From the UHGV virus genome UHGV-0042415: a DNA stretch of 35,864 bases; one strand, written 5' to 3'. A program made the position numbers and the translations under genes. The notes beneath the pieces were generated by a model. It was not told the DNA's origin, did no database searches, and saw only the letters and a program-made list of their open reading frames with translations. Positions 10,841 through 35,379 of this stretch are shown here, piece by piece (positions within the stretch are counted from its first letter, which is position 1; every line of letters starts with the position of its first letter). Source of the DNA: a virus.

Positions 10841-10844
10841 ACCA

Positions 10845-13353: not shown

Positions 13354-13359
13354 TAAGGA

Positions 13360-17156: not shown

Positions 17157-17179
17157 TAAGACAAAGGAGCAAATTTTTT

Positions 17180-18232: not shown

Positions 18233-18277
18233 TCAACTCACGGCGGGCATCATGCCCGCCTGTAACGGAGAGAAAGA

Positions 18278-19078: not shown

Positions 19079-19170
19079 CGACTGACCCCGTCAGCGGGCG
19101 GCGTGCGCGGTGTTCCGGTTTGACTCCGTGACCGTTTACACCGCGCACCCACCGCCCGATTTTTTCAGGA

Positions 19171-19674: not shown

Positions 19675-19874
19675 TGAAAGTGAAGGCACTGGAAGGCGAC
19701 ACCGTGGATTCGCTCTGTTTCCGGTACTACGGCACGACGCAGGGCGTCACCGAAAAGGTGCTGGATGCCAACCCCGGACTCTGTCAGCAGGTATTTCTGG
19801 ACGCCGGGCAGGAAGTGGAGATGCCGGAGCCGGAGAAGAAGAAACGAGAAATGATTCAGTTGTGGGGGGAGTAG
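19674..19874 (+). CDS. X: Tail protein X (P2 gpX-like)
   Basis: MKVKALEGDTVDSLCFRYYGTTQGVTEKVLDANPGL matches the P2 gpX pattern (MKTFALQGDTLDAICVRYYGRTEGVVETVLAANPGL); ATG overlaps the L stop. Confidence 0.88.
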   Translation: MKVKALEGDTVDSLCFRYYGTTQGVTEKVLDANPGLCQQVFLDAGQEVEMPEPEKKKREMIQLWGE

Positions 19875-19876
19875 CA

Positions 19877-20200
19877 GTGAGCACCATTCAAACAGGGATC
19901 ACAGAGCAGGTTATTGCGTGGCTCTTTGACCACCTGCCAACGGTGTATGCAGTAGGCGCGGCGGTCAGCATTTCCGCGCTGATGAGTCTTTATGACGGAC
20001 GAACACTGGTTCAGACCGTAACGGGATCGCTGGCGTGCGGCGTTCTTGCCATGGCCGTGGCCGGGTCGTTGCGCTTCTTCGGAGTTCCTGAGGATGCCGT
20101 GACGTTTTTCGGCGCATCTATCGGTTTTATGGGTGCAGAGAAAGCACGCGACAAGGTTATTGCGGCCTTTAATCGCAGGGTGAAGGAGAAGGACGAATGA
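19877..20200 (+). CDS. Putative holin
   Basis: About 107 aa from a GTG directly after the X stop; two to three hydrophobic segments and a charged C-terminus (RRVKEKDE); immediately upstream of the endolysin. Confidence 0.6.
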   Translation: MSTIQTGITEQVIAWLFDHLPTVYAVGAAVSISALMSLYDGRTLVQTVTGSLACGVLAMAVAGSLRFFGVPEDAVTFFGASIGFMGAEKARDKVIAAFNRRVKEKDE

Positions 20201-20589
20201 GCGACACATTTAAATTCAGCAGCCGGAGCGAAAAGAATTTACAGGGTGTAAATCCTGATCTGGTGAAAGTGACCCGACGGGCACTGGAAATCTCGGAAGT
20301 GGATTTTGGTATCACCGAAGGATTGCGCAGCCGTTACCGCCAGAAGCAACTTGTGGCCACAGGTAAGAGCCAGACCATGAACAGCCGCCACCTTACGGGG
20401 CATGCCGTGGATGTTGTGGCGTATGTCGGCAGCCAGGTGTCATGGGAATGGCCGCTGTACGAAAAAATCGCAGCAGCATTCAGACAGGCCAGCCGGGAGC
20501 TGAATATTCCGGTGGAATGGGGCGGCGACTGGAAGACCCTGAAAGACGGACCGCATTTTCAGTTACCACACGGAGCCTATCCGGCATGA
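20197..20589 (+). CDS. Endolysin, peptidase M15 (L-alanyl-D-glutamate endopeptidase/VanY-like) type
   Basis: 130 aa; zinc-site-like SRHLTGHAVDVVAY; sits between holin and spanins. Confidence 0.8.
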   Translation: MSDTFKFSSRSEKNLQGVNPDLVKVTRRALEISEVDFGITEGLRSRYRQKQLVATGKSQTMNSRHLTGHAVDVVAYVGSQVSWEWPLYEKIAAAFRQASRELNIPVEWGGDWKTLKDGPHFQLPHGAYPA

Positions 20590-20993
20590 AGCTCTGGCCC
20601 ACGCTTGGCGTCGCTTTCCTTCTGATTGCCGGATGGGGAACATCCATGCGTCTGTCGTGGTCGCTGGGCCGGGAGAACGCCAGAAACGAAGCGCAGGCCA
20701 GCACCCTGAAAAGTACCGCCGACACCCTGAATATCATCAGCGCCGGGGTACAGGATATGCAGCAGGTGCTGGCGCAACTCCGCGTGGAAAATCAGCAACG
20801 CAATCAGGACGGAGAGGTAAGACGTGAACAGCTACGCAACGATATTGCAAAAGATGAATGCGCCCACGCTTTGCCTGACGCTCGTTTTACTGACAGGCTG
20901 CGCAGGCACGCAGAACGCGCCACTGCCAGCGCCGTCAGTCCGGCTTATACCGCAGACGCTGACCATTCCGGTAACGCCGCCCCCCTTCCCTGA
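20586..20993 (+). CDS. i-spanin (Rz/LysB-like)
   Basis: 135 aa; N-terminal TM LWPTLGVAFLLIAGWG, coiled-coil periplasmic part; ATGA overlap with the endolysin stop. Confidence 0.75.
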   Translation: MKLWPTLGVAFLLIAGWGTSMRLSWSLGRENARNEAQASTLKSTADTLNIISAGVQDMQQVLAQLRVENQQRNQDGEVRREQLRNDIAKDECAHALPDARFTDRLRRHAERATASAVSPAYTADADHSGNAAPLP

Positions 20994-21144
20994 CCCTCCC
21001 ACATGGGGAAATCTCGGTATATGGGGCGACCGCCTTCTGGATGCACTGGAAACCTGTAACGCGGATAAACGGGCCATTGAATTACTGGAACAGCGCAGGC
21101 TGCAACGACTGAACAACGAGGACAACAACCATGCTGAAAACTGA
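20854..21144 (+). CDS. o-spanin lipoprotein (Rz1/LysC-like), overlapping the i-spanin in another frame
   Basis: Lipobox LLTGC, proline-rich mature part (PVTPPPFPDPP); starts inside the Rz gene and extends past it as in P2 lysB/lysC; start codon uncertain (20824 or 20854). Confidence 0.7.
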   Translation: MNAPTLCLTLVLLTGCAGTQNAPLPAPSVRLIPQTLTIPVTPPPFPDPPTWGNLGIWGDRLLDALETCNADKRAIELLEQRRLQRLNNEDNNHAEN

Positions 21145-21598
21145 TTCCCTGCGTGAAGCCATGACCCGTTCATGCCGATGGTGTCAGGCCAACCCGGAAA
21201 AATTCACCATTTTCGTGGAGAGCGGCAACATTGAAACGACAGGAGAAACCCCATCGTTTGTTTACCGCTATCAGATGGTGATGTTTGTCATGGATTACGC
21301 CGGGGAGCTGGATGACCTCACGCTGCCGCTGCTGGCGTGGTTATCCGAAAATCAGCCACAGTTGTTGCTCAACCCTGAGCGTAATCAGGACATCAAATTC
21401 TCCGCCGTTATCAATGACGATGACAGCGCCGACCTCCTGTTTACGCTCCCCCTGCGGGAACGCGTTCGCATCACGCGCAACAGTCAGGGCACACCGCAGG
21501 CAGAACACCTGCCGGAGCCAAAACCCCGTCTGCCCTCTTCCGAAGGCGACTGGTCGCATGTATTCCAGGATGTGACGTGGGGTGAAAGCGATGGATAA
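21131..21598 (+). CDS. R: Tail completion protein (P2 gpR-like)
   Basis: 155 aa; position after the lysis cassette. Confidence 0.8.
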   Translation: MLKTDSLREAMTRSCRWCQANPEKFTIFVESGNIETTGETPSFVYRYQMVMFVMDYAGELDDLTLPLLAWLSENQPQLLLNPERNQDIKFSAVINDDDSADLLFTLPLRERVRITRNSQGTPQAEHLPEPKPRLPSSEGDWSHVFQDVTWGESDG

Positions 21599-22226
21599 GG
21601 CATTCACCCGCGTGGATGAAACCTTTGAGGCCATCCGCAACAGCCTGAATCAGCAGGCCATCAATAACATCGCCAGAAAGCTGGCACAGGATTTACGCCG
21701 CGCCCAGCAGGCGCGTATCCGGTCACAGAAAGCGCCGGACGGGACCGCGTGGACACCACGCAGACGCCGCGTAACCCGGATACAGGAACGCATTCGCTTT
21801 ATCTGGAATAACGAAGCACGCACGCTGAAAAACTGGCATCACGACACGGGGAAATACGGGCGAACCATTACCGGGTGGGATGAGGATAAAAACAATATCC
21901 GCACGTTTTACCGGGATGACATCGACCGTTTTCTGGAAATACGCACCCGGCGCATCAACCAGGACAGCACAAAGCGCGTCCCCATGTTCGTAAAACTGCG
22001 CACCGCCCGCTACCTGAAAGCCCGTGCAGATGCTTCCGGTGTGACGGTGGGTTACAGCGGCGTGGCCGCACGTATTGCCCGCGTTCATCAGTTCGGTGAG
22101 CGCGATCAGGTTGCGCCGGGCATTTTCACCGATTACCCGGTACGTGAGCTGCTGGGTATCAGCCAGGCAGATGAGCGCCTGATTTATAACACGGTGCTGG
22201 GCCGGATTGCGGAGGCTGTACGGTGA
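21582..22226 (+). CDS. S: Tail completion protein (P2 gpS-like)
   Basis: About 211 to 214 aa; position between R and V. Confidence 0.8.
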   Translation: MKAMDKAFTRVDETFEAIRNSLNQQAINNIARKLAQDLRRAQQARIRSQKAPDGTAWTPRRRRVTRIQERIRFIWNNEARTLKNWHHDTGKYGRTITGWDEDKNNIRTFYRDDIDRFLEIRTRRINQDSTKRVPMFVKLRTARYLKARADASGVTVGYSGVAARIARVHQFGERDQVAPGIFTDYPVRELLGISQADERLIYNTVLGRIAEAVR

Positions 22227-22804
22227 GCGCAGAACTCATGCGACTGCTGAGCAATATCATCCGCACCGGGATCATCTCTGAAGTTGATGAGAAGTCCTGG
22301 CGCGTGCGCGTTCGCAGCGGCGAACTGGAAACAGGATGGTTGCGCTGGAACACCACGCGCGCGGGAGCCTTCAATGTGTGGCTGCCGCCATCACCAGGCG
22401 AACAGGTGGTAATTGCCTGCATTGGCGGCAACCCGGAAACCGCCATGATAATTGGCAGCCTGTGGAGTGATGCCAGTCCGGCCCCCGGAAAAAGCCTGAA
22501 AGAAATCGTGGTCAGTGCGCCGGATGGCGCGGTGTTCCGCTACGACGCGGACGCAGGCGCACTGAGCGCCAGCGGCATGAAAACAGCCACCCTGCAGGCA
22601 TCCGTCAGCGTGACACTGGATACGCCCGTCGTGGAATGCACAGACCTTCTGAGAACGGCGACGCTTGACGTCACAAAAGGGGGAAAGATGAGCGGCAATA
22701 TCACGCACAGCGGCGGCGATTTCACCTCAAACGGCATCACAGTGCATACGCATAAGCACGGTGGTGTTAAAGGTGGCAGCGATTCGACAGGAGGCCCGCA
22801 GTGA
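22223..22804 (+). CDS. V: Baseplate spike/assembly protein (P2 gpV-like)
   Basis: 193 aa; overlapping starts and stops with S and W. Confidence 0.85.
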   Translation: MSAELMRLLSNIIRTGIISEVDEKSWRVRVRSGELETGWLRWNTTRAGAFNVWLPPSPGEQVVIACIGGNPETAMIIGSLWSDASPAPGKSLKEIVVSAPDGAVFRYDADAGALSASGMKTATLQASVSVTLDTPVVECTDLLRTATLDVTKGGKMSGNITHSGGDFTSNGITVHTHKHGGVKGGSDSTGGPQ

Positions 22805-23151
22805 CAACCCGCTACACAGGAATGAACCCGGACGGGACGGGAAACCTGAACGATATGGACCACCTGAAACAGTCAGTCAGGGACATCCTGACCACCCCGC
22901 TGGCAAGCCGGGTTATGCGACGGGAATATGGCAGCCTTGTGCCTGATTTGATTGACGAACCCATGAATAACACCACGCGTCTGCAATGCATGAGTGCTGC
23001 CGTGATTGCACTGACACGATGGGAACCCCGCATTGCCCTGGATGCCATCGATGTTGTCTGGAAAGCAGGAGGCCGCGCTGGGGTGACGCTGTCGGGCACT
23101 GTCATGCAGACCATGCAGAATGTTGAATTAACCATCACGCTGAGAGAGTAA
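22801..23151 (+). CDS. W: Baseplate wedge protein (P2 gpW, T4 gp25-like)
   Basis: 116 aa; size and position. Confidence 0.85.
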   Translation: MTTRYTGMNPDGTGNLNDMDHLKQSVRDILTTPLASRVMRREYGSLVPDLIDEPMNNTTRLQCMSAAVIALTRWEPRIALDAIDVVWKAGGRAGVTLSGTVMQTMQNVELTITLRE

Positions 23152-23154
23152 ATC

Positions 23155-24051
23155 ATGCCTGCCGTTGACCTTTCCCAGTTACCGGAACCCGCCATCATAG
23201 CGGAGCCTGACTTTGAGGCAATTCTGGCTGACACAGAGGCCATGATGATTGCGTCCTATCCTGCCGAACAGCGTGAAGCCGTCTCCGCCGCGCTGGAGCT
23301 GGAATCGGAACCCCTGAACGTTATCGCTCAAACCATGTCTTTTCGTGAAATGCTGTTACGCCAGCGGGTTAACGAGGGGGCACGCGCCTGCATGTTAAGC
23401 CACAGCGCCGGAACAGACCTGGACAACCTCGCGGGCAATATGAACACAAAGCGCCTGGTTATCACTCCGGCAACGGATACCACCGACGCGGTGATGGAGA
23501 GCGACACCTCGCTGAGACTGCGGGCGCAGCGGGCGTACGACGGCCTGAGTGTTGCTGGCCCGTCAGGTGCATACGAGTATTTTGCCCGCAGCGCCAGCGG
23601 TCTGGTGCGTGATGCGCGGGCCATCAGTCCGTCTCCGGCCTGTGTGACGGTTTCCATCCTGTCCACTGAAGGCGACGGCACAGCAACGGAGGCGTTGCTT
23701 AATACCGTTCGCGCCGTTCTGAATGCAGAGGATACCCGCCCGGTGGCCGACCGCCTGACCGTACAGAGCGCCAGAATCGTGACATGGCGGCTGAATGCAA
23801 AACTGTACTTTTACCCCGGTCCGGAATCCGAACCTATTCTGGCGGCGGCTGAATCGTCGTTCAGGAAGTGGCTGGCTGAGCAGGGGCTTATCGGTCAGGA
23901 CGTGGCGTTGTCCGCCATTGCTGCCGCACTGCATGTGCACGGTGTGCAACGCGTGGAGATAATCGAACCCACACAGAATATGGCCATCAGCGACATACAG
24001 GCGGCGCGCTGTGAGTCATTCACCATCAGCGAAGGTGGGCGTAATGAGTAA
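23155..24051 (+). CDS. J: Baseplate wedge protein (P2 gpJ-like)
   Basis: 298 aa; position and size. Confidence 0.88.
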   Translation: MPAVDLSQLPEPAIIAEPDFEAILADTEAMMIASYPAEQREAVSAALELESEPLNVIAQTMSFREMLLRQRVNEGARACMLSHSAGTDLDNLAGNMNTKRLVITPATDTTDAVMESDTSLRLRAQRAYDGLSVAGPSGAYEYFARSASGLVRDARAISPSPACVTVSILSTEGDGTATEALLNTVRAVLNAEDTRPVADRLTVQSARIVTWRLNAKLYFYPGPESEPILAAAESSFRKWLAEQGLIGQDVALSAIAAALHVHGVQRVEIIEPTQNMAISDIQAARCESFTISEGGRNE

Positions 24052-24652
24052 TTCACTGTTACCGCCATCAGCCAGCAGTTTCATGCGTTGCGCCGAAGCT
24101 GTCGGAGCGCGCATTACAGACATCCCGGTAGACCTCAACACGCTGTGGTCACCGGACACCTGCCCGGTGCATCTGCTGCCTTATCTCGCCTGGGCATTTT
24201 CCGTTGACCGCTGGGATCGCAACTGGCCGGAAGAGACAAAGCGACAGGTGATTCGTGATGCATGGCTGATACACCGACACAAAGGGACCATCAGCGCACT
24301 GCGAAGAGCCGTGGAGCCTCTCGGCTACCTGATTGAAGTAAAGGAGTGGTGGCAACTCAACGAGGAGCCGGGAACATTTCGCATTGTTGTCGGAGTACTT
24401 GATCAGGGCATCACCGATGAAATGTATCAGGAACTTGAGCGCCTTATTGCGGATGCAAAACCAGTAAGTCGCCATCTGACGGGGCTGGCGATCAGCCTGA
24501 GTGTGAACGGAAAGATTTTCGTTGGTACGGGATGCTATCACGGCGATGCCCTGACGGTTTATCCCTACACCCCGGAGTCCATTATTGTCGAAGGGGATTA
24601 TTTCCCTGCCCCGGCCATTCATTTAATTGATAATCTGAGAGTAAACCCATGA
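24044..24652 (+). CDS. I: Baseplate protein (P2 gpI-like)
   Basis: About 202 aa from the ATG at 24044, overlapping the J stop. Confidence 0.82.
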   Translation: MSNSLLPPSASSFMRCAEAVGARITDIPVDLNTLWSPDTCPVHLLPYLAWAFSVDRWDRNWPEETKRQVIRDAWLIHRHKGTISALRRAVEPLGYLIEVKEWWQLNEEPGTFRIVVGVLDQGITDEMYQELERLIADAKPVSRHLTGLAISLSVNGKIFVGTGCYHGDALTVYPYTPESIIVEGDYFPAPAIHLIDNLRVNP

Positions 24653-25974
24653 CATCAAAATACTATGCCATACTGACCAGCCAGGGCGCAGCAAGGCTGG
24701 CAAACGCGACCATGCTCGGCAGCAAGCTGAATCTGACGCAAATGGCCGTGGGTGATGCAAACGGCATATTACCAACGCCAGATCCGACACAAACCAGACT
24801 GATTAACCAGAAACGCATTGCTCCGCTGAATATGCTGGATATCGACCCCTCTAATCCGGGCCAGATTATTGCGGAACAAATCATTCCTGAAAATGAAGGA
24901 GGTTTCTGGATCCGTGAGATTGGTCTTTACGATGATGAAGGGATCCTTATTGCAGTGGCGAACTGCCCGGAAACCTACAAACCACGATTGCAGGAAGGGA
25001 GTGGTCGTACACAGACCATCCGAATGCTCCTTATTGTCAGCAATACAGAGTCTGTCACACTGAAAATTGACCCGTCAGTAGTCCTGGCAACCCGCAAATA
25101 TGTGGACGACAGGATGTCTGGTGCATCCTTGCAACTGGACAAATTAATAGAGAAACACATCAATGCAGAGGATCCGCATACCCAATATGCCCACAAAGAA
25201 TCCCCGGCGTTTAGCGGCACCCCGACTGCACCAACTGCGGATAAAGCGGATAACAGCAATAAGCTGGCCACGACAAAATTTGTAAAAGGGGCAATCGCTG
25301 ATCTGCAGTCAAAATTAGATAATAACCAGCCCGTTGACTGCTATACAAAAGCCGAATCAGATACCAGGTATCCGGATTCAGGAAGTGTTGCATACCTGAC
25401 GAAAAGTACAATTCAGCGTTTTCAGGGAAGTATTGAAGTCAGGGATATTTTCAGTATCTACACATTAAATGATGTAAACGGTCTCAGGCTCGAACCGGGA
25501 CTAAAAAATAACATTGGACTGAAACGCAGAGGAAAATGGACTTATTACAGCTTCCCGGATAAGGATGGGGAGCTGGCATTAAAATCTGATTTAACTTCGC
25601 TTCTGGACGGTCTGGACATATATCCTGTGGGAGCACCACTTCCCTGGCCATTAGCCACACCGCCATCGGGTTACTTAATCTGTAACGGACAGCGATTTAA
25701 CCCGTCCACCTACCCCGGGCTGGCTTCTGCCTATCCAGGTGGTGTCCTGCCGGATTTGCGCGGTGAATTTATTCGTGGCTGGGATAATGGTCGTGGTGTG
25801 GATACAGGAAGACGCATCCTCAGTCAGCAATTCGGCAATACCCCAGTTATGGATTATGAATATCCGGTAGGCAGTGGTTTTTCGGTAACGATTCGCACTG
25901 TAGGAAATGATGAAGGTGCAAATGAAACGCGTCCGCGAAATATCGCTTTTTTATATATCGTGAGGGCTAAATAA
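24649..25974 (+). CDS. H: Tail fibre protein (P2 gpH-like)
   Basis: 441 aa; conserved-looking N-terminal region then divergent C-terminal receptor-binding part; followed by the fibre assembly gene. Confidence 0.85.
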   Translation: MTSKYYAILTSQGAARLANATMLGSKLNLTQMAVGDANGILPTPDPTQTRLINQKRIAPLNMLDIDPSNPGQIIAEQIIPENEGGFWIREIGLYDDEGILIAVANCPETYKPRLQEGSGRTQTIRMLLIVSNTESVTLKIDPSVVLATRKYVDDRMSGASLQLDKLIEKHINAEDPHTQYAHKESPAFSGTPTAPTADKADNSNKLATTKFVKGAIADLQSKLDNNQPVDCYTKAESDTRYPDSGSVAYLTKSTIQRFQGSIEVRDIFSIYTLNDVNGLRLEPGLKNNIGLKRRGKWTYYSFPDKDGELALKSDLTSLLDGLDIYPVGAPLPWPLATPPSGYLICNGQRFNPSTYPGLASAYPGGVLPDLRGEFIRGWDNGRGVDTGRRILSQQFGNTPVMDYEYPVGSGFSVTIRTVGNDEGANETRPRNIAFLYIVRAK

Positions 25975-26594
25975 TGCAAAAATATAACGTCAATATTCAG
26001 GAAGGAAAAATTGGTGAGAACGGTCTGGCCAGCGTGGCCGGATGGGTTAAGTGCTACCTTGCTAATCCTGTAACACGCGAATACATGGGGTCCACCATGG
26101 AATATGTCATGTTCGATGTGTCCCTGTCAGAAGGTGCATATCTGGATGAACCTCAGTTACCAGTAAAAGCCAGTCAGGCGGTTCGACGCACGGAAGATGG
26201 AACAGCCTGGGAAATTGTCGACGATTATCGTGGGATGGAAGCCTTTAATACACAAACCAGAGAGTCCGTAACCATTAATTTTATTGGTCCATTGCCCGAA
26301 ATATTAACAATGCACAAACCCACAAGCGAATTTGACAGATGGGATGGCCATCGCTGGGTGGAGGACAAAGAAGCAGCCAGAAAAGCCAGGATTGATGCTG
26401 TCAGAAAACACAAAGCAGCGTTATCAGAAGAAGCGGAAACACGCATCGCTCAGCTTGAGCGAAAAGTTCGTCTGGAACTTGCATCAGATGAAGAAAAAGA
26501 ACTGCTGAAAGCATGGGAAATCTACACAATAAAACTCGATGATATCAATCCTGAAATAACAACGGATATTAAACTGCCGGAGAAGCCAGAATAA
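25974..26594 (+). CDS. G: Tail fibre assembly chaperone (P2 gpG-like)
   Basis: 206 aa; 1-nt overlap with the H stop. Confidence 0.8.
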   Translation: MQKYNVNIQEGKIGENGLASVAGWVKCYLANPVTREYMGSTMEYVMFDVSLSEGAYLDEPQLPVKASQAVRRTEDGTAWEIVDDYRGMEAFNTQTRESVTINFIGPLPEILTMHKPTSEFDRWDGHRWVEDKEAARKARIDAVRKHKAALSEEAETRIAQLERKVRLELASDEEKELLKAWEIYTIKLDDINPEITTDIKLPEKPE

Positions 26595-26611
26595 TTAATG
26601 TTTCCGGCAAT

Positions 26612-26663
26612 CTGTCGGATAACCGGATAAAACCAGCCCCGGCAATTCCGACAGTTTCTTTTT
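26612..26663 (+). terminator. Hairpin plus T-run terminator after G
   Basis: ctgtcgga ... tccgacag 8 bp stem followed by tttcttttt; lies between convergent G and U. Confidence 0.55.
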
Positions 26664-26713
26664 ATAAAAACTTACCGCTGTGACCAGACTGGTTATCAGC
26701 GGTTCACTTCATA

Positions 26714-27208
26714 TCAGAACAGTGCTTTAACTGAACTTGTCGTATTATTCAGGGATGTGGTCACTTTTCCCTTTAGCTCTGACACCATATCGCTGAATGA
26801 GGAGGACTGAAGGCGTTCCCGCAGATCTTCGTCGCATCGCTCCAGCGTCAGGGAAAATTCTATTTTCTTCGCTTTCCCGTAGCGATCTAACTCAGAACGG
26901 GTCGTATTCGTTTCGGTCAGAACATACATGCCATAAATATGTCCGACACCATCAATCAGAGGCCAGGGTCGCCCTGTATACGCCTGTGTGGTCAGCAGCG
27001 ACAGTGACACTTCGCCACCTGTAATTTCAGGATAAAGCACGCCGGAAAGAACGATGCGATCATCACCTGCACCGATATACTGCCAGCTTGCAGAACGGTT
27101 AACGCGTTCATTTTTCACATGCCGCCAGCTTTTGTTTTGCTGCAACTGCTGATGCGGCAATGTGCGCAACTCAAAAACAAACATACCGTAAATCATCATC
27201 ATGACCAT
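26714..27208 (-). CDS. U: Tail protein U (P2 gpU-like)
   Basis: 164 aa; GMFVF..LPHQ...GVLYPEITGG...WPLIDGVGHIYGMYV matches remembered P2 gpU; on the minus strand. Confidence 0.88.
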   Translation of the reverse strand: MVMMMIYGMFVFELRTLPHQQLQQNKSWRHVKNERVNRSASWQYIGAGDDRIVLSGVLYPEITGGEVSLSLLTTQAYTGRPWPLIDGVGHIYGMYVLTETNTTRSELDRYGKAKKIEFSLTLERCDEDLRERLQSSSFSDMVSELKGKVTTSLNNTTSSVKALF

Positions 27209-27214
27209 GAATCC

Positions 27215-30052
27215 TTAATCTTTATCGTAAAAACGGCCACGTCCGGCACGGTCACGTCGTTCCATTTCTGTCCTGACCATTTCACCGACCAGTTTCGCCA
27301 GTTCGCGGGGATTCTGCGTAACAACGTTATGCAGATGAACATGAATTTCACCACCAAATCCGGAGGCAACAGGCTCCCGGTTACGGGGAGGAGCAGGAAC
27401 AGATGCCACTGGCGATCGTATGGCCTCCGCCACCGGGCGGGAGCTGGCAGCAACAACAGGGACCAGCGCCGGAGGCAGCGGAGCCGGGACCACGGGTGTG
27501 ATATTGATTGCGGGGGCAGGCTTACTGACCTGCGCAATCTTCCGCTCCTGCCACTCCCCACGAACGGCAAGTGCGCGTGGCAGGTTCTTAAAGACAATAT
27601 CGCCGGGGCCAATGCGTTTTTTCGTCTCATCAACCAGCTTACCTGTGTTATCAGCAATTTTGCTGAGTCTGCGTTGCGTACCGGTATTGCTGTCTGTGAG
27701 CGGTTTGTTGTCTTTGGGTTTATCGCCTCCGGTGCCATTTTCCGCTGGCTTCGGCGGATTGATTTTCGCCAGATCCCCCTGAAGCAAGGCAACCTTATCC
27801 TGAAGAATGGCCGCACGCTGTGCGTCTTCGATTTTCTTTCTCGCCCTTTCCGCTTCATCCGGAAGCACACCGAGCTTTTCAAGTATCCACGCCAGCGTAT
27901 CCAGCAGCATTTTTGCAGGCGTCAGAACAAGCTGTAGCGCACCACCAAGAACGTTACCAAATACCTCGCCAGCACTGGTGCACTTATCCAGTGTTTCCTT
28001 GCTGGACTCCATCGGTGACAGCAGCGATTTAAACCAGTTAAACACCTGGCTGATCCCGCTTCCGATTATGTCAAAAACAGGGCCAAACCGTTCAAAGGTT
28101 TCACGCAGCGGAGCCAGCTTTTCCATAATTCCGCTGAACACCCCGGCAAAAAATGCCTTAATCGGGTCCCAGTATTTCCAGATGAGAACCGCCGCAGCCA
28201 CAAGTGCAGCAGCAACCAGACCAACCGGACTGAACAGCGTCCCGAGAGCACCGCCCAGCAAAGAGACGGAACCCGTCACCATTCCCCATAGTGCAGGCAA
28301 CACCCTGACAACATTCATGGAACTGGTCAGAAGAGAAAAACCAAGACGCAACGTGGCCAGCTTCCCGTAAAGCACCCCAACAACCAGCGATAACGAGCCT
28401 ACGGTTGCTGTCATTGCCAGCAGCGCACCGCCTGCAATCAGCAACTGGCGCGTCAGTACCGGATGGGCCTGTGCCAGCGCCGTCACCTTTGTGACCACAC
28501 GCGTGAGCCACTGTGTGACAGAACGCAGCGGCCCATCAATCAGATCACTGATGCGAATACGCAGCCCTTCCCATGCGCTGCCGAGTGATTTCAGGTCGCC
28601 GTCAAGGTTGTCGGCCATAACCTTTGCTGTACGCTCTGCCTCACCGCGCGCAGCTTCAAGCTCTTTTCTCAGTTTGGGTAAGGAACCGTTACCCGCCGCA
28701 TCAACGAGCGCCATAAACGATGTGAAAGCCTCTTCTCCGGCAATGTCCTTAAAGAACGATACCCGGTCAACTTCCCCGTATTTGCGGGTGGCTTTATAAA
28801 GGTCGGCCAGCACATTCTCCATCGGGCGCATTTTGCCGTTCGCGTCAGAGACGGCCACACCCAGTTCTTTCAAAGCATCAGCGGTTGCCTTTGGCTGTGT
28901 TACCAGACGAGCCAGGCTGGCACGCATTGCCGTCCCGGCATCACTCCCCCTGATCCCCATATTCGCCAGCACACCCGCCATTGCTGCGGCCTGCTCCAGC
29001 GATATTCCCAGCTTGCCCGCCACCGGACCTGCATATTTCATGGTTTCACCCAGTGCGCGAAGGTCAGTGTTGGTTCGGGTAAACGCTGCGGTGAGTGTGT
29101 CACCGACCCGGTCCATCTGGTCAGCAGAAAGGCCGAACTGCGTCAGGATATTTGAGCCAATATCCGCCGTCTCGCCGAGGTCCATACCGCCAGCCGTTGC
29201 CATGTTCAGCACGCCGGGAAGCGCAGCCTGAATGGCTTCTGGTGTGAAGCCAGCCATTGCCAGAAAGCTCTGTCCACTGGCGGCATCGCCTGCGGTGAAC
29301 TGTGTTTCAGAGCCAAGTTTTAACGCCTGCTCACGCAGCGCCTTAAACTGCGGGCTGTTTTTGTCGATTCGCGTCAGTGCCTGAACGCGGGACATCTCTT
29401 TCCCGAACCCGATGGCAGGCTGTAAAAAACGCCCGGCAGCATAGCCGCCAGCCGCTGCCGCGCCAATTGCCAGCGCACCACCCGTTTTCAGTTTTCCCGC
29501 TGTTTCCTGCGCGCGCGAATACCGCTCACGCGCCCGTGTTACACGCGCAAGCGCCTGCCGTTCGCGTTCAAGCTGGTTGTTGTATTGTTCGGTGCGTCTG
29601 ATGGCCTGCTGGATGGTGTTATCGCTACCTGTCAGGGAAATGCCGTGGCGTTTCAGCTCTCCGCCAAGTTCCCGCATTTTCTGAATTTCCCGTGTGCGCG
29701 ATTCGTTCAGGCGTTCAAGCCGGGTGCTTAACTGCTGCATCAGCTTTTGTTGTTTTTCGCTGAGCACTGTCCCCGAGCGTTGTAACTGTTGAAGGGCGTT
29801 AAGCTGGCGTCGTGCTTTCACGATGCCCGCATCCGCTTTACTGACAGCGTCACGGGCGCGCTCAAATGAACGCGCCTGACGCTCAAGATTTTTGATCGCC
29901 CCCTGCGTTCGCTGGATGGAGTCACCAAACTGTCCCATCAGACGGCGGGCGCTTTCGACAGGCCGGGTCAGCCTGTCAACGGCGCTGAAAGCGACCCGGA
30001 TATCAAGAGTCTTCATTGTCTGCATTCCCGCTGCGAAGTGCCGCCCGCTCAC
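27215..30052 (-). CDS. T: Tail tape measure protein (P2 gpT-like)
   Basis: 945 aa; coiled-coil N-terminal half, Ala/Gly-rich hydrophobic central segments; follows E/E'. Confidence 0.92.
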   Translation of the reverse strand: MSGRHFAAGMQTMKTLDIRVAFSAVDRLTRPVESARRLMGQFGDSIQRTQGAIKNLERQARSFERARDAVSKADAGIVKARRQLNALQQLQRSGTVLSEKQQKLMQQLSTRLERLNESRTREIQKMRELGGELKRHGISLTGSDNTIQQAIRRTEQYNNQLERERQALARVTRARERYSRAQETAGKLKTGGALAIGAAAAGGYAAGRFLQPAIGFGKEMSRVQALTRIDKNSPQFKALREQALKLGSETQFTAGDAASGQSFLAMAGFTPEAIQAALPGVLNMATAGGMDLGETADIGSNILTQFGLSADQMDRVGDTLTAAFTRTNTDLRALGETMKYAGPVAGKLGISLEQAAAMAGVLANMGIRGSDAGTAMRASLARLVTQPKATADALKELGVAVSDANGKMRPMENVLADLYKATRKYGEVDRVSFFKDIAGEEAFTSFMALVDAAGNGSLPKLRKELEAARGEAERTAKVMADNLDGDLKSLGSAWEGLRIRISDLIDGPLRSVTQWLTRVVTKVTALAQAHPVLTRQLLIAGGALLAMTATVGSLSLVVGVLYGKLATLRLGFSLLTSSMNVVRVLPALWGMVTGSVSLLGGALGTLFSPVGLVAAALVAAAVLIWKYWDPIKAFFAGVFSGIMEKLAPLRETFERFGPVFDIIGSGISQVFNWFKSLLSPMESSKETLDKCTSAGEVFGNVLGGALQLVLTPAKMLLDTLAWILEKLGVLPDEAERARKKIEDAQRAAILQDKVALLQGDLAKINPPKPAENGTGGDKPKDNKPLTDSNTGTQRRLSKIADNTGKLVDETKKRIGPGDIVFKNLPRALAVRGEWQERKIAQVSKPAPAINITPVVPAPLPPALVPVVAASSRPVAEAIRSPVASVPAPPRNREPVASGFGGEIHVHLHNVVTQNPRELAKLVGEMVRTEMERRDRAGRGRFYDKD

Positions 30053-30532
30053 GCCAGCTAACCACTTCGCCGGGCGTCATCATGAAGATTTCGGCGGGCG
30101 ACCAGTTAAAAATAACGGCAATATCTGCCACAAAGTCTTCTATGTGCTCAAAGCACAAAACTGTGATCAGGCTTCCGTCGCCTGTTCGTTCTTCCCGCCA
30201 GAGTCCGCACCGCTCAAAAAATTTACGGCAACCACGCATAACTGAATAAAGTCACGGGATGCCATTTTTTTGATCGTCACTTCATCCAGTCGCGGTGATG
30301 TCACGCGTGACAGCAGCGTAAACATGGATTCCGCTTTCAGATTCAGCACATCAGACAGCGACAAATCTCGCAGAGATCCAGCCTGCTCAATAGCCCCGGT
30401 GATCTCCACAAACGTGATTTTTTCGCCGCCACGCTCAATGGGTTGGGTAAGTTTTACGCCACGCTCACTGGTTTCTTTCACAGTATCAGCAACTACCGTG
30501 TTTTCGGTATCGATGTTTTTCGTCTCTTTCAT
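30003..30532 (-). CDS. Tail assembly chaperone E+E' (programmed -1 frameshift product)
   Basis: Slippery heptamer TTTTTTG on the minus strand (plus-strand 30215..30221) joins the E frame to the overlapping ORF 30003..30239, as in the P2 E/E' and lambda G/GT arrangement. Confidence 0.7.
30167..30532 (-). CDS. E: Tail assembly chaperone E (P2 gpE-like)
   Basis: 121 aa; contains the TTTTTTG slippery site near its 3' end. Confidence 0.85.
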   Translation of the reverse strand: MKETKNIDTENTVVADTVKETSERGVKLTQPIERGGEKITFVEITGAIEQAGSLRDLSLSDVLNLKAESMFTLLSRVTSPRLDEVTIKKMASRDFIQLCVVAVNFLSGADSGGKNEQATEA

Positions 30533-30586
30533 CAGGAAACTCCTTTCAGTCAGAGGCGACGCACTGCGCCGCCTGCATATTACTTA

Positions 30587-31099
30587 TCAGCCAAGCCCAA
30601 GTGCGGAACGGATGCGATCGGGCACAATGTCCTTACCGTCCTTCCGGTAAATGAAGTTCAGCAGGTCAATCTCCCACAACGGACGATCGTTAACGCTCAG
30701 CTTGTAGTAGGTGTTTTTAATGGCGTAAGTGTGCGACGTGGCTTCGCCCTGCTTGGCTTCCCCCATATCAATTTCCGTCACACGTCCGCGCATTTCGACT
30801 TCATACAGGTCGCTTTCTGCATCGGTGTAGTATTCGCCCGCAAAACGCAGCAGCGTGCCGTCAATCGTGCCGCCATACTTAAGGAACAGCTCACGAACTG
30901 CGCCCCCCATGACAAAGCTCGCATCAAGCGCGGAGTCGTCCAGACCGAGATCAATACTTACCGCGCCCATCATGCCACCACCCCGGTAGCTGTCGGTTTT
31001 GCGCGTCAGTTTAGGCAGGGTGACAGACGTCACCTTACCCACTTCGTTTTCACCATCCACAAACAGCGTAAAAAAGCGAAGATGTTTTGGTACAGCCAT
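30587..31099 (-). CDS. FII: Tail tube protein (P2 gpFII-like)
   Basis: 170 aa; directly downstream of the sheath gene. Confidence 0.88.
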   Translation of the reverse strand: MAVPKHLRFFTLFVDGENEVGKVTSVTLPKLTRKTDSYRGGGMMGAVSIDLGLDDSALDASFVMGGAVRELFLKYGGTIDGTLLRFAGEYYTDAESDLYEVEMRGRVTEIDMGEAKQGEATSHTYAIKNTYYKLSVNDRPLWEIDLLNFIYRKDGKDIVPDRIRSALGLG

Positions 31100-32283
31100 C
31101 AGGCACCTCCCAGAACCGCAAATGCGGGTCCAAAGAATTCATCAGTAAACGACTGGTAAAGTTCCATGTCTTCCAGTGGAGGAGCTGGCGTATATTTGTA
31201 GCGAATACGCACCCGCCCCTGACGTAAATCCGTGGTGCCGTTATCCACCACGTCATACCAGCACGACGCCCCAATCAGTTTCCCGGCAGTAACCAGTGAA
31301 TCCAGTTTTGCCCTGACGGCACTGATAACATCCTTCACATTCACGGGTGTTAATGGGCTGTCAATGGTTTCAAACTGCGCTTCCGCAATCGTGTCAGCCA
31401 GGACCTGTGCGGTACGGGTATACACCTCAAAGATGTAGGCTTTTGTTTCCGGTGTGCGGTTGCCCCAGAAGCGGAACCCGTTGCGACGAATAATGGTCGT
31501 GATTTCCTGGTTGTTGAGGCTGTTGGCATCACTGTCTTCGGCCTGCAACGACCAGAACACATGTCTGGACATTCCCAGCACATTTTTAACCGGAACGTTG
31601 GACAGCGATTTGTGCCAGCCCTGCTCATGGTCAATGTACGCACGAAGGCCGCACGCATAGGCAGGCGCGGGGAACACTTCGTTTTTGCCACTTTTCGGGT
31701 TCCAGGCGATGAAGTCCGGCCATAAGAGCATCACCTCACGTTCGTTGAATTTCTGGCGGTAGGTAATTGCCTCAGCCATCGTGTTACAGCCGTGACATGA
31801 GGCATACACAAACGCGCGCAGTTTACCCGCAATCACGCACAGGGATTTTGTTACCGCCTCCGTGTCCAGCTCCGGCGCGGCCAGAATACGCGGACGGTAT
31901 CCGATGCTTTCCTCCTGCTCTGCAACAAGCAGCGCATACATCCCCGTATAGCTGCCGTCAGATTCAGAACCACCGATAACCAGTTGATCCTGCGTCTTAC
32001 CGCCCTCTTCTTTGTGTTCAGCCACGCGAACGACGATCACCTTTGTGCTCACCTGGTCTGCGATAGCCTTAAGCGCACGATAAAGCGTCCCCGTTGTTCC
32101 GCATTTTCCCAGCACGTCATTGACGCGGGTCAGCAGTGTGGGCTTGTTCAGCGGGAACAGCTTCGCGTCCGCATCATCCGCCGTTGCCACGATACCGATA
32201 ACACTGGAATCAACATCGTTAATCGCTGTTACCAGGTCGGTATTTTCCGTAACACGGGCACCATGAAAACGAGTTTCACTCAT
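31099..32283 (-). CDS. FI: Tail sheath protein (P2 gpFI-like)
   Basis: 394 aa; TLSNV...IRRNGFRFWGNRT...YTRTAQVLADTIAEA...YTPAPPLE match remembered P2 FI. Confidence 0.92.
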   Translation of the reverse strand: MSETRFHGARVTENTDLVTAINDVDSSVIGIVATADDADAKLFPLNKPTLLTRVNDVLGKCGTTGTLYRALKAIADQVSTKVIVVRVAEHKEEGGKTQDQLVIGGSESDGSYTGMYALLVAEQEESIGYRPRILAAPELDTEAVTKSLCVIAGKLRAFVYASCHGCNTMAEAITYRQKFNEREVMLLWPDFIAWNPKSGKNEVFPAPAYACGLRAYIDHEQGWHKSLSNVPVKNVLGMSRHVFWSLQAEDSDANSLNNQEITTIIRRNGFRFWGNRTPETKAYIFEVYTRTAQVLADTIAEAQFETIDSPLTPVNVKDVISAVRAKLDSLVTAGKLIGASCWYDVVDNGTTDLRQGRVRIRYKYTPAPPLEDMELYQSFTDEFFGPAFAVLGGA

Positions 32284-32440
32284 AGCTTCAGCCCCTTGTA
32301 TCCGTTAAATGATTAGGCAACAATCATCACCCACCACGCGCGTAATCTCACCCCTGCGCCATTCTCCCGCCACGGCGACAACAAAAAGCAGTAACCCCCT
32401 CCGCACGCACATGCGACCATGCCGCACAGGGAGGGAACAG

Positions 32441-33550
32441 ATGACCGACACCACCATGCAATTGCTCAGTCAGGGCACAGACCCTGTAAAAATGCCGGAT
32501 TTTGATATTCTCGCGGAGGGTAAAACGCTGTCAGGCGTGGCAGAGCGCCTGATGAGCCTGTCACTGACCGACAACCGTGGATTTGAGGCGGACCAGCTCA
32601 CCATCACGCTGGATGATGCGGATGGTCAGTTGCAGCTACCGCCACGGGGCGCGCGCCTGACGGTTCTCATTGGCTGGAAAGGAGAACCGCTGACAGAAAA
32701 AGGCACTTACATTGTTGATGAAATCGCTCACGAAGGACCGCCGGACAGGCTGACTGTTTCAGCCAGAAGCGCAGATTTTCGGGATGAATTTAACGTTAAA
32801 CGTGAGGTGTCCTGGCATGATGTGACCGTTGAGCGTGTGGTATCCGCCATCGCTCATCGGTACGGTCTGAAACCACAAATCAGCGAAATACTGATGGATA
32901 TTGAAATCGACCACGCCGACCAGACCGAAGAAAGCGACATGTCCTTCCTTACGCGCATGGCGGAAATGCTGGGCGCAATCACCACGGTAAAAAGCGGTAA
33001 TCTGTTATTCATCATGCCTGGCGGTGGCGTGAACGCACAGGGCCAGCCGTTGCCCTCATTCGCCATCACACGCAGCAGTGGCGATCGCCATCAGTTCCGC
33101 ATTGCTGACCGCGAAGCGTATACGGGGGTACGCGCTTACTGGCTTGATCTTAATTACGGGAAAAAGAAAAAAGTCAGCGTGAAACGCCGCAAACCGCCAA
33201 AACCCAAAAAGGAGAAAAGCAGCAGCCGTGAAGGTGATTATATGGAAGGCGCGGAAGGCAATGTGTTTGTGTTACGCAAGACTTATCAGAACGAGCAGGC
33301 AGCAAGACGCGCAGCGGCGGCGAAGTGGCAGCAGCTACAACGCGGAGCCGCATCATTCTCCATCACGCTGGCACGTGGACGAGCAGAACTCTACCCCGAA
33401 ATGCATGGCACGGTAACAGGATTTAAAAGCGAGATTGATAATCAGGACTGGATTATTGCAAAAGCCGAGCACACCATTGATAACAGTGGTTTTACCACAC
33501 AGCTTGAGCTTGAAGCAAAAATCCCGGAATGGATAGCAGAAACAGAGTGA
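32441..33550 (+). CDS. D: Tail protein D (P2 gpD-like)
   Basis: Start at the ATG at 32441 with SD gggaggg; LTDNRGFEADQLTITLDDADGQ...LPPRG...VDEI.H.GPPD...RSADF matches P2 gpD; lysine-rich internal linker. Confidence 0.9.
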   Translation: MTDTTMQLLSQGTDPVKMPDFDILAEGKTLSGVAERLMSLSLTDNRGFEADQLTITLDDADGQLQLPPRGARLTVLIGWKGEPLTEKGTYIVDEIAHEGPPDRLTVSARSADFRDEFNVKREVSWHDVTVERVVSAIAHRYGLKPQISEILMDIEIDHADQTEESDMSFLTRMAEMLGAITTVKSGNLLFIMPGGGVNAQGQPLPSFAITRSSGDRHQFRIADREAYTGVRAYWLDLNYGKKKKVSVKRRKPPKPKKEKSSSREGDYMEGAEGNVFVLRKTYQNEQAARRAAAAKWQQLQRGAASFSITLARGRAELYPEMHGTVTGFKSEIDNQDWIIAKAEHTIDNSGFTTQLELEAKIPEWIAETE

Positions 33551-33676
33551 ACAACCTCGACGTTTTACTTAATATACAATAGCCTTCTGGACACGGTAAG
33601 GCAAGAACAAGGGTAAAAGATCCTTTACTGTCAGAGTTACAGGTTATACCTGTAAGCAAAAACAAAGGCATATATT

Positions 33677-34435
33677 ATGTTCAGTTTATTTTCGTTAACT
33701 GCCGGAGCAAATGTGCGCTGGCATGATTTACCTGGTAAAGGTATTCCTGTTGTTTTTATTCATGGGCTTGGCTGTTCCTCTTCTTATGAATATCCACGGG
33801 TTGTTGCAGATCCTGCATTTGGTGGACAACGAGCGATATTGATAGATCTCCCTGGATATGGATTCAGTGATAAGCCTAAAGGATTCGATTACAGCATATC
33901 CCATCAAGCTAAAGTTGTTATTGAAGTAGTAGAAACCTTAAATCTCTCACAGTTCCATATTTATGGTCACAGTATGGGGGGAAGTATTGCGATTGAAGTG
34001 GCCAGACAACTACATGAGAGAACAAGAAAGCTTGTGGTTTCTGAGCCTAATTTTCACTCTGGTGGAGGTACCTATAGCCGTAAGATAATAGAGAAACCAG
34101 AAGCAGAGTTTATTTCGCATATATATAATGAATTACTGGAGTGTGAAACATCCCCATGGAAAGGTGAACTCCAGAATGCAGCCCCATGGGCAATATGGCG
34201 AGGAGCCAAAAGTCTGGTTGATGGAACCACTCCATCATGGAGAGATATATTCCTTAATCTGCCCTGTTCACGTACACTAATTTTTGGCGAACAATCATTG
34301 CCAGACAATGATTTCCAGCAAATAAAAGAATCTGGAATATCTGTTGCAATAGTGCCAAACGCTGGACACTCCATGTCATGGGAAAATCCATCAGCACTGG
34401 CCTCAATTTTACATACAGAATTTTATAGAAAGTAA
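33677..34435 (+). CDS. Alpha/beta-hydrolase fold protein (putative esterase/lipase), AT-rich moron
   Basis: 252 aa; HG oxyanion motif (VVFIHGLG), nucleophile elbow GHSMGG, C-terminal His in AGHSMSW; markedly AT-rich with AT-rich flanks. Confidence 0.75.
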   Translation: MFSLFSLTAGANVRWHDLPGKGIPVVFIHGLGCSSSYEYPRVVADPAFGGQRAILIDLPGYGFSDKPKGFDYSISHQAKVVIEVVETLNLSQFHIYGHSMGGSIAIEVARQLHERTRKLVVSEPNFHSGGGTYSRKIIEKPEAEFISHIYNELLECETSPWKGELQNAAPWAIWRGAKSLVDGTTPSWRDIFLNLPCSRTLIFGEQSLPDNDFQQIKESGISVAIVPNAGHSMSWENPSALASILHTEFYRK

Positions 34436-34480
34436 AATAACCTATACATAGATATTGTTTCCACCAACATCATATTATCA

Positions 34481-34512
34481 AAGAGCAGGGCAAATTTACC
34501 TCCTGCTCTTTT
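34481..34512 (+). terminator. Hairpin terminator after the hydrolase gene
   Basis: aagagcagg-(11 nt loop)-cctgctctt followed by tt. Confidence 0.5.
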
Positions 34513-34788: not shown

Positions 34789-35049
34789 ATGTTTCGTTGT
34801 CCGCTTTGTGGCGCATCTGCCCGTATCCGCACCAGTCGTCCGGAAAATGATTCAAACACCGTGCGGCAAAAGTATTACCAGTGTAACAACCTGGAATGCG
34901 GCGTATGCTTCTCAACACTGGAAGCTTTCCATAAATTCACATCAAAACACGCCTCCGGCGTTCACTCTTCAGAAGGTATCCCGTGGCATGAGCTGCCAGC
35001 TTCACACAGGGGAAACAATCAGATGAGTTTGCCTTTACCTCAGAATTAA
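34789..35049 (+). CDS. ogr: Zinc-finger late gene transcriptional activator (Ogr/Delta family)
   Basis: 86 aa; MFRCPLCGASARIRTSR...YYQCNNLECGVCF matches the P2 Ogr Cys4 finger (MFHCPLCQHAAHARTSR...YHQCQNVNCSATF); SD aagggagg upstream. Confidence 0.9.
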   Translation: MFRCPLCGASARIRTSRPENDSNTVRQKYYQCNNLECGVCFSTLEAFHKFTSKHASGVHSSEGIPWHELPASHRGNNQMSLPLPQN

Positions 35050-35238: not shown

Positions 35239-35379
35239 ATGTCGCAAAAATCGCTTACGGCCATCACGTTCTGCGTGACGGTAATCCTCATCATCTGGAT
35301 GCTGCACGGTTCGCTGTGTGAAATACGGATGAGCTTCTGGGGAGCGGAGTTTGCGGCGTTCTTACAGTGTAAGCAGTAA
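35239..35379 (+). CDS. hok: Hok/Gef-family type I toxin (small membrane toxin)
   Basis: 46 aa MSQKSLTAITFCVTVILIIWMLHGSLCEIRMSFWGAEFAAFLQCKQ; TM helix followed by the family signature SLCEI...AAF; SD aaggag upstream; stable hairpin gacgggga-ggcaac-tccccgtc downstream; too short for the ORF track. Confidence 0.8.
   Translation: MSQKSLTAITFCVTVILIIWMLHGSLCEIRMSFWGAEFAAFLQCKQ

Follow-up and report, generated by a model that had tools for sequence, protein, structure and literature searches.

Fixed inversion of the FI…U tail-gene block in a P88-like prophage and a predicted shared activator site between FI and D

The virus genome UHGV-0042415 (35,864 nt, hereafter the window) carries a P2-like tail-gene region in an order that departs from P2, raising the questions of whether this order is real, whether it is fixed and how the displaced genes could be transcribed. 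In P2 (Peduovirus P2, NC_001895), FI-FII-E-T-U-D form a single operon on the strand of V…G, in which the end of U and D overlap. In the window, H and G on the plus strand converge with U-T-E/E′-FII-FI on the minus strand. D, again on the plus strand, is divergent from FI. A sequence-only reading of this DNA had described these strands and the collinearity of P2; the latter was confirmed, as were the former by PHROG and Pfam assignments. The same reading treated the arrangement as peculiar to this prophage, most probably a fixed rearrangement and possibly an assembly artefact. Its account of an inversion relative to P2, of fixity and of promoter features between FI and D stood up in our analysis, while artefact and peculiarity did not. 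The explanation that we regard, taken as a whole, as clearly the most probable is that the window is a complete P88-like prophage (Xuanwuvirus-type, Peduoviridae) with the normal gene order of its clade, produced by an ancestral cassette inversion, in which two late promoters, pF and pD, would be served by one shared activator site.

The P2 structural and late gene set is present (Q, P, O, N, M, L, X, lysis genes, R, S, V, W, J, I, H, G, FI, FII, E/E′, T, U and D), with H to D assigned by PHROG or Pfam, O to D by the PGAP annotation of an identical prophage of E. coli M8, and Q, P, O and others recognized as ORFs in P2 order. A gpA replication protein (Pfam Phage_GPA, 1e-131), a Phage_integrase protein and an ogr-family late activator (34789..35049, plus strand, 86 aa; Pfam Ogr_Delta, E = 5e-14) were also found. 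P88 (Xuanwuvirus P88, NC_026014) is 96.4% identical to the window over 79% of positions 1..25000 and 94.4% identical over 69% of positions 24600..34500, with approximately 94% identity from U to D; from these two segments, identity × coverage comes to roughly 70–76%, at the genus threshold of ~70%. The gene order of the Xuanwuvirus clade, with FI…U opposite to the fibre genes and D, is present, and P88 and PhiSM, like the window, carry ParM after gene A. The window differs from P88 in the C terminus of H and in G, and carries, between D and ogr, a gene for an alpha/beta hydrolase. PADLOC, run on ten proteins of the accessory and cargo regions, returned no match for eight of them and weak HTH-domain matches only for an HTH repressor-like protein (2141..2554).

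Within the tail block, H (24649..25974, plus strand) encodes a tail fibre of the tail-collar type (441 aa; PHROG 327 and fibre families) and is followed by G (25974..26594, plus strand), the tail fibre assembly protein (PHROG 105, E = 1.8e-53). The resemblance of H to known phages is confined to its N-terminal ~550 nt. On the minus strand lie the tail sheath gene FI (31099..32283; PHROG 23, E = 2e-124), the tail tube gene FII (30587..31099; PHROG 55, E = 8e-60; phage major tail tube protein in PGAP), the tail assembly chaperone gene E (30167..30532; PHROG 103, E = 2e-34) with the E′ frame (30003..30239; PHROG 1756), the tape measure gene T (ORF 27215..30052; PHROG 28, E = 1e-213) and the tail protein gene U (26714..27208; PHROG 76, E = 3.6e-72). 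PGAP places the start of T in E. coli M8 at 30016, inside this ORF. E′ is predicted to be reached from E by a programmed −1 frameshift on the slippery sequence T TTT TTG (30221..30215, E frame), from which the E′ ORF extends to 30003 in the −1 frame; P2 is annotated with a frameshift of the same kind. D (32441..33550, plus strand) encodes the baseplate hub or late control D protein (369 aa; PHROG 52 and Pfam Phage_GPD), which shares 52–78% full-length identity with the D proteins of P2, 3LV2017 and phiT5282H. The D start codon at 32441 and the ribosome-binding site GGGAGGG are a conserved pair in a five-genus alignment; a rival in-frame ATG upstream, at 32309, is not conserved. Given the start at 32441, FI and D diverge over a gap of 157 bp (32284..32440), as had been read from the sequence.

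The distribution of the arrangement was assessed among phage records, species representatives and complete genomes. The stretch from U to D is collinear with the window in 13 phage records at 92–95% identity. Among 80 species-representative loci, 56 have the inverted order with a D protein 61–99% identical to that of the window, and 23 have the collinear order with a D protein only 47–54% identical. All 56 loci with D identity of at least 61% are inverted, across ~25 Enterobacterales genera, and the arrangement therefore tracks a clade. Of 5426 complete E. coli genomes, 1353 contain the FI|D junction and 1571 the P2-type U–D junction. The inverted order is annotated in P88 and Citrobacter phage PhiSM and in at least four further genera of Peduoviridae, among them Gemsvirus, Reginaelenavirus, Novemvirus and that of Serratia phage KSP20. 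P2, Fels-2, PSP3 and the P2-like Burkholderia phages are collinear, which rules out Fels-2 and PSP3, both considered as carriers of the inverted order. These data establish how the genes are ordered, that this order is fixed and where it occurs: the inverted FI…U block is the standard fixed order of the P88 group and nothing peculiar to this prophage. The sequence-only reading had itself named normality of the order within the phage subgroup as an outcome that would refute it, and this is the outcome obtained. The literature on P2-like Burkholderia phages, P88, PhiSM and Xenorhabdus tailocins yielded no explicit account of the inversion or of a pD promoter.

The same comparisons bear on whether a misjoin during assembly turned the FI…U block round, for which the departure from P2 order is the sole pointer. 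Four independent complete E. coli genomes carry the G|U junction at 99.9% identity, the FI|D junction recurs in the 1353 genomes above, and both junctions are present in P88 virion DNA (PMC5285337) and in the 56 species-representative genomes. Moreover, the conserved regulatory features of the FI|D gap described below make sense in this orientation only. Because both junctions recur in independent assemblies, we consider an artefact virtually impossible. P88 and PhiSM have the window's arrangement, …I-H-G on the plus strand, U-T-E′-E-FII-FI on the minus strand and D on the plus strand, followed by ogr. Both can be induced and both give plaques (PMC5285337, PMC6456863); the inverted order is therefore compatible with virion production.

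At the left boundary, G and U are separated by a 119-bp spacer containing two predicted intrinsic terminators face to face, with a G+C-rich hairpin and a U-run on both strands of 26612..26703. The plus-strand terminator (26612..26663), already proposed from the sequence and upheld here, consists of a hairpin at 26612..26654 (−18.8 kcal/mol, z = −2.4) followed by UUUCUUUUU, and would end the fibre (…H-G) transcript. The minus-strand terminator (26664..26703), which had been missed, consists of a hairpin at 26674..26703 (−16.9 kcal/mol, z = −4.1; none of 200 shuffles equally stable) followed by the U-run AAGUUUUUAU, and would end the FI…U transcript. Both hairpins were revealed by folding; neither was picked up by a simple pattern scan for terminators.

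The P88 counterpart of this spacer differs, as P88 carries, between G and U, an invertible fibre segment with alternative H′/G′ genes together with a DNA invertase. Gemsvirus 500465-2, in which FI…U also lies on the strand opposite to D, likewise has an invertase and an invertible fibre segment adjoining U. Such segments directly beside U give some reason to ask whether the FI…U block itself flips by site-specific recombination through a Cin/Gin-like invertase, as fibre segments of relatives do. The 119-bp spacer in the window contains no ORF, hence no invertase gene, and none was found elsewhere in the window. As the earlier reading had noted, inverted repeats are absent from the boundaries at 26.6 kb and 32.3 kb; a search of 25.9–33.7 kb gave chance-level pairs only, the best of which joins 26688..26705 with 31967..31984, inside FI, at 16 of 18 bases. 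A search of the window with a Gin crossover site, a weak test, returned no match. In the opposite orientation the promoter geometry of D would be lost, and all 56 classified loci of the clade share one orientation. With no boundary repeats, no invertase and no clade member in the other orientation, an invertible switch is very improbable, and the order is best regarded as a fixed rearrangement.

In this order, the FI…U operon would call for a late promoter reading leftward from the FI|D gap and D for a promoter of its own, as had been proposed; sequence features matching both predictions were found when 32284..32440 was searched for divergent Ogr-dependent promoters. A P2-type late promoter was taken to have the dyad TGT-N12-ACA centred ~55 nt ahead of its transcript start and, at the P2 distance from this site, a −10-like box whose −35 partner is poor or missing; for the window, distances to a start were taken from the −10 boxes alone. 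A strict search for TGT-N12-ACA over the whole window gave three matches, a number below chance, none at a late promoter. Because the sites in the window carry a TCT half-site, finding them required a looser pattern combined with footprinting across genera. These pointed to a predicted Ogr-type late-activator site, TCT-N12-ACA, at 32363..32380 (centre 32371.5), whose left half-site is one mismatch from the consensus TGT; the orthologous sites of Klebsiella 3LV2017 and Serratia KSP20 have the canonical TGT-N12-ACA. Of 56 related loci, 51 have the pattern T[GC]T-N12-ACA in the FI|D gap, 50 with a single match and one with two that overlap; in this strict form it is absent from the remaining five. 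Its centre lies 74.5–88.5 nt from the FI start codon in the 51 gaps (mode 82.5; 88.5 in the window), and the corresponding pF distance is 82.5 nt in P2 and 79.5–86.5 nt in the collinear controls. In Gemsvirus 500465-2, Reginaelenavirus 3LV2017, Novemvirus phiT5282H and Serratia KSP20, FI…U is likewise divergent from D, the gap contains the conserved block …GCGACAACAAAAAGC… and the D start codon is kept; the non-E. coli members of this set are 68–72% identical to the window at the nucleotide level and differ in fibre modules and cargo genes.

The predicted site is flanked by two −10-like boxes. On the left, the putative −10 box of leftward pF, GATGAT (32323..32328, minus strand), spans −48.5 to −43.5 from the site centre and predicts a start near 32316; its A2 and T6 are nearly invariant in the 51 anchored sequences and in 16 collinear controls, including P2, PSP3 and Fels-2. 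The putative −10 box of rightward pD, GACCAT (32415..32420, plus strand), mirrors it at +43.5 to +48.5 and predicts a start near 32427, with a short D leader of ~14 nt. The pD box is kept in the inverted clade, with A2 and T6 near-invariant, and is not conserved in collinear controls. Both boxes thus lie 43.5–48.5 nt from the site centre, the same positions as in P2 pP and pO, and are conserved across ~25 genera; the apparent conservation of site and boxes is inflated by the relatedness of the sequences, although spacer and flanks vary.

P2 offers a mapped precedent in the divergent promoters pP and pO, which are served by one activator site centred at 3071.5 and start 55.5 nt to either side of that centre, at 3016 and 3127. 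The divergent P|O gap of the window contains a comparable TCT-N12-ACA site (16230..16247) with −10-like boxes on both sides, in the geometry of mapped P2 pP/pO. An exact extended pattern, TTGTTGT-N12-AGAA, was found within the window only in the FI|D and P|O gaps; as it was derived from the same two sites, this recovery is circular within the window. TGTTGT is common to the annotated activator sites of P2. Independent support for the activator site comes from cross-genus conservation together with P2 geometry. The Ogr homologue of the window shares 42% identity with P2 Ogr over 53 aa, and its DNA specificity is assumed. The window and P2 have in common the late-gene set, the T TTT TTG frameshift site, an Ogr-family activator and, by prediction, the type of late-promoter site. 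Peculiar to P2 in this comparison are a separate pV promoter and, between G and pF, the fun(Z) cargo slot. Ahead of V in the window, a motif search saw no pV-like site, an absence that is not proof.

D might instead be driven otherwise than by an Ogr-dependent promoter sharing the pF site: a constitutive sigma-70 promoter could serve it, or the right-hand box might have another role, for instance within the D leader or through extra contacts of activator or RNA polymerase at pF. The shortness of the D leader is in keeping with such alternatives, and the promoter assignment is a sequence-based prediction. A sigma-70 consensus scan of the gap, which is blind to activator-dependent promoters, found no strong site. 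The right-hand box has A2 and T6 at the exact mirror distance of P2 pP/pO and is conserved only where D adjoins, and D, as a late structural gene, needs late expression. We therefore consider a different mode of D expression unlikely, though less so than an artefact or a switch.

Our preferred explanation is that, in the ancestor of the clade, a cassette comprising the pF promoter and FI-FII-E/E′-T-U was inverted whole relative to the P2 order and left D behind. FI to U would still be read leftward from the original Ogr-dependent pF, now in the FI|D gap, and D would be read rightward from a second late promoter, pD, on the other side of the same dyad-symmetric site, paralleling the single P2 site that serves pP and pO. 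The fibre and FI…U transcripts would then stop at the opposed terminators of the G|U spacer. The assignment of promoters, shared site and terminator function draws on conservation and on the geometry of mapped P2 promoters. Extending this to the P88-like clade in general, we lean slightly towards a reading in which one Ogr-type FI|D site drives both the ancestral pF and a pD that evolved more recently. Because no separate pV-type site was found, this site and the P|O site, both bidirectional, may together run most or all late genes; and the inversion may have been tolerable because P2-type activator sites already work both ways.

As the order is already visible in published annotated genomes (P88, PhiSM, KSP20 and others), it carries little weight as a discovery. 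Its significance lies in the use of P2 as a reference: in E. coli the inverted order and that of textbook P2 are about equally common, and P2 is an unsafe template for the gene order and operons of roughly half of Enterobacterales P2-like prophages. Annotators and prophage callers should not count the inverted order as a rearrangement or a misassembly. If the promoter reading is true, the FI|D gap would be a clean natural case of an operon split by inversion, in which the orphaned gene was rescued by a bidirectional activator site.

The 35.9-kb window is a P2-like prophage with an integrase gene (50..1051, minus strand), a gpA replication protein gene (6981..9779, plus), Q and P on the minus strand, O to G on the plus strand and a gene for an Ogr-family activator (34789..35049, plus). 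In P2, V-W-J-I-H-G and FI-FII-E-T-U-D all lie on a single strand. Searches against PHROGs and Pfam confirmed every gene name that a sequence-only reading had assigned in and around the inverted block and, with the P2 record, the inversion of the FI to U block itself. The plus strand carries H (24649..25974), G (25974..26594) and D, which ends at 33550; between G and D, the minus strand carries U (26714..27208), T (27215..30052), E (30167..30532), FII (30587..31099) and FI (31099..32283). The minus-strand E′ frame extends down to 30003, and the slippery heptamer of the E/E′ pair (T TTT TTG, 30221..30215, in the E reading frame) is canonical and likewise present in P2.

An assembly artefact, raised by the same reading, was rejected because both junctions recur in independent complete genomes. 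The convergent G|U junction (25900..27300) was found at 99.9% identity in four complete E. coli genomes (M8, RSHH22, SK6988 and IGC_RcoliRes_1.1), all from mice, and the divergent FI|D junction (31900..32900; coverage ≥ 80%) at 95–100% identity in 1353 of 5426. The P2-type U-D junction is present in 1571 of the 5426, and the two arrangements are about equally common in E. coli.

The distribution of the inverted order was explored beyond E. coli. Megablast of 24600..34500 against the phage collection returned 13 records collinear with the window from U to D (92–95% identity). The annotated records of P88 (Xuanwuvirus) and 500465-2 (Gemsvirus) place U-T-E′-E-FII-FI on the strand opposite to D and the fibre genes. 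A more sensitive search across FI|D recovered the divergent junction in Reginaelenavirus 3LV2017, Novemvirus phiT5282H, Serratia KSP20 and many Klebsiella phages. Using a D-protein profile, 80 loci were then fetched from species-representative bacterial genomes and classified by tblastn, the queries being the window and P2 versions of the FI, FII, T, U, D, I, J and ogr proteins. The window arrangement, with J and I (plus), U-T-FII-FI (minus), D (plus) and ogr (plus), was found in 56 loci and the P2 arrangement, with U immediately before D on one strand, in 23; one locus with a truncated D hit was left without a class. D identity to the window matched this split exactly (61–99% in inverted and 47–54% in collinear loci). 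The inverted loci span about 25 Enterobacterales genera, including Salmonella, Serratia, Klebsiella, Enterobacter, Citrobacter, Kosakonia, Pantoea, Erwinia, Pectobacterium, Brenneria, Edwardsiella, Hafnia, Yersinia, Providencia, Morganella, Xenorhabdus and Photorhabdus. The order, which had been taken as unusual, is thus the norm of its subgroup; it looks odd only beside the classical models P2, Fels-2 and PSP3, every one of which is collinear. It is also compatible with virion production, since P88 has been induced, purified from plaques and sequenced from virion DNA (PMC5285337), and the temperate phage PhiSM is spontaneously released and forms plaques (PMC6456863). One fetched locus (L009, NZ_JBQPOM010000071.1, ‘Vagococcus sp. 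WN89Y’) places a copy of this enterobacterial tail module on a Firmicute-assigned contig, where its D protein shares 98% identity with that of the window; this assembly is probably contaminated or mislabelled.

The orientation of the FI to U block is fixed, as the sequence-only reading had held. An invertible switch was rejected, as there are no inverted repeats at the two block boundaries and no invertase gene in the window, just 119 bp separate G from U, and the orientation is identical in all classified clade members. The best inverted-repeat pair links a stretch of the G|U spacer to one lying 300 nt inside FI and matches at 16 of 18 bases, about the chance expectation for 7.8 kb. P88 is the closest relative: the first 25 kb of the window align with it at 96.4% identity over 79% of their length, and the U to D stretch at about 94% identity. 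Judged from these part-genome comparisons, similarity to P88 is at the usual 70% threshold for a genus. P88 and 500465-2 carry an invertible alternative-fibre segment and a DNA invertase between G and U (3262..5966 and 5555..7576 of their fetched loci, L001 and L002, respectively). In P88 and like relatives this Cin/Gin-like invertase adjoins U and serves the neighbouring fibre segment, whereas the window lacks both. The window also differs from P88 in G and the H C terminus. The H C-terminal half, the whole of G and the G|U spacer (26595..26713) had no close match in the phage collection and recurred exactly only in the four mouse E. coli genomes.

In phiT5282H and many fetched loci, too, G and U converge directly, with no invertase. 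In the window, the spacer contains two predicted face-to-face intrinsic terminators sharing an A+T-rich centre. The plus-strand hairpin (26612..26654, followed by UUUCUUUUU; −18.8 kcal/mol, z = −2.4) bears out a terminator already proposed here. The minus-strand hairpin (26674..26703, followed by AAGUUUUUAU; −16.9 kcal/mol, z = −4.1), equalled in stability by none of 200 shuffles, would end the FI to U transcript.

The D start is most likely ATG 32441. In an alignment of the window, P88, Klebsiella phage 3LV2017, Enterobacter phage phiT5282H and Serratia phage KSP20, this codon and its ribosome-binding site, GGGAGGG, are conserved, and the variation upstream is non-coding in pattern. Read from 32441, D aligns over its full length with D of P2, 3LV2017 and phiT5282H (52–78% identity), which supports the claimed 157-bp FI|D gap (32284..32440) as correct. 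Public annotations of the D start conflict (window 32309..33550): PGAP called only the last 266 aa as D in E. coli M8 (locus L003, 15851..16651), the Gemsvirus record has a 413-aa ORF from the ATG equivalent to 32309 (L002, 13213..14454), and the P88 record starts D 9 nt downstream of the ATG aligning with 32441. Among these, conservation favours 32441.

A separate D promoter and a leftward FI late promoter (pF), both anticipated from the gene order, are supported by a conserved site and flanking boxes. In the P2 record, every late promoter has a mapped activator site, reading TGTTGT-N…-(A/C)CA, and the starts of the P and O transcripts are mapped as well; the divergent pP and pO share a single site (centre 3071.5), and their starts (3016 and 3127) are each 55.5 nt away from it. 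In the FI|D gap, the most conserved non-coding block across five genera is GGCGACAACAAAAAGC, which with its left half reads TCT-N12-ACA (32363..32380) in the window and canonical TGT-N12-ACA in 3LV2017 and KSP20. T[GC]T-N12-ACA occurs in this gap in 51 of 56 inverted loci, against a chance expectation below 0.1 per gap, centred 74.5–88.5 nt (mode 82.5) from the FI start codon. The corresponding distance is 82.5 nt at P2 pF and 79.5–86.5 nt in 16 collinear loci, PSP3 and Fels-2 included; this match indicates that pF is homologous in both arrangements and moved with its operon upon inversion of the cassette.

When 51 distinct sequences were anchored on the activator site, ungapped, two short, near-maximally conserved islands stood out amid variable sequence. 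The FI-side −10-like box is GATGAT in the window (32328..32323, minus; −48.5 to −43.5 from the site) and GATTAT or GAATAT elsewhere; the D-side box is GACCAT (32415..32420, plus; +43.5 to +48.5) and AATCAT or AACTAT elsewhere. The two boxes retain A at position 2 and T at position 6, the −10 signature, and lie exactly where the P2 pP and pO boxes lie relative to their shared site. Collinear controls conserved the FI-side box but not the opposite side, so the D-side box is specific to genomes with D there. A single activator site would then serve both pF, starting leftward near 32316, and a clade-specific D promoter, starting rightward near 32427 with a 14-nt leader to the D ATG. TCT-N12-ACA with −10-like boxes on both sides was also found in the P|O gap of the window (16230..16247). 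TTGTTGT-N12-AGAA occurs exactly twice in the window, in the FI|D and P|O gaps, although it was derived from these two sites and is not independent evidence; such evidence lies in conservation across genera and in agreement with the geometry mapped in P2.

For O, the longest ORF begins at 16287; PGAP and the predicted pO start (about 16294) both favour 16320 as the start codon. The region ahead of V (20000..22300) yielded no late-activator site flanked by −10 boxes, and the S-V gap is only 11 bp, whereas in P2 V has its own promoter, pV, and a terminator follows S; therefore, O to G may form one long operon in the P88-like clade.

Several accessory genes were also observed. A low-GC alpha/beta-fold hydrolase gene (33677..34435, plus), with no match to known defence-system models, occupies the slot between D and ogr, a further difference from P88; relatives have this slot empty or with other contents, and the gene resembles cargo (a ‘moron’). 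Two ORFs of 128 and 215 aa with very low GC (~37%; 1057..2122, minus), between the integrase gene and an HTH repressor-like gene (2141..2554), had no significant Pfam and no PADLOC match and may be cargo. The M8 annotation places a gene for an SPFH/Band-7 protein in the early region (5111..5941, plus) and, as in P88, one for a Hok/Gef-family toxin just past ogr (about 35239..35379, plus). Next after gene A (9881..11156, plus) come genes for an actin-like segregation protein of the ParM/StbA type and for a Plasmid_stab_B protein; the ParM annotation is common to P88, 520873, PhiSM and the window, perhaps a hint of plasmid-like maintenance in the P88-like clade.

Our literature search found no explicit discussion of the inversion, although the arrangement is already plain in public annotated records such as the partial KSP20 record (AB452988) and that of P88, published in 2017 (PMC5285337). 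The observation is right but ordinary: in a large, common P2-like clade this gene order is standard and fixed. Mildly new is the proposal that a D promoter shares the pF activator site, which would then work in both directions, a tidy and easily tested hypothesis.
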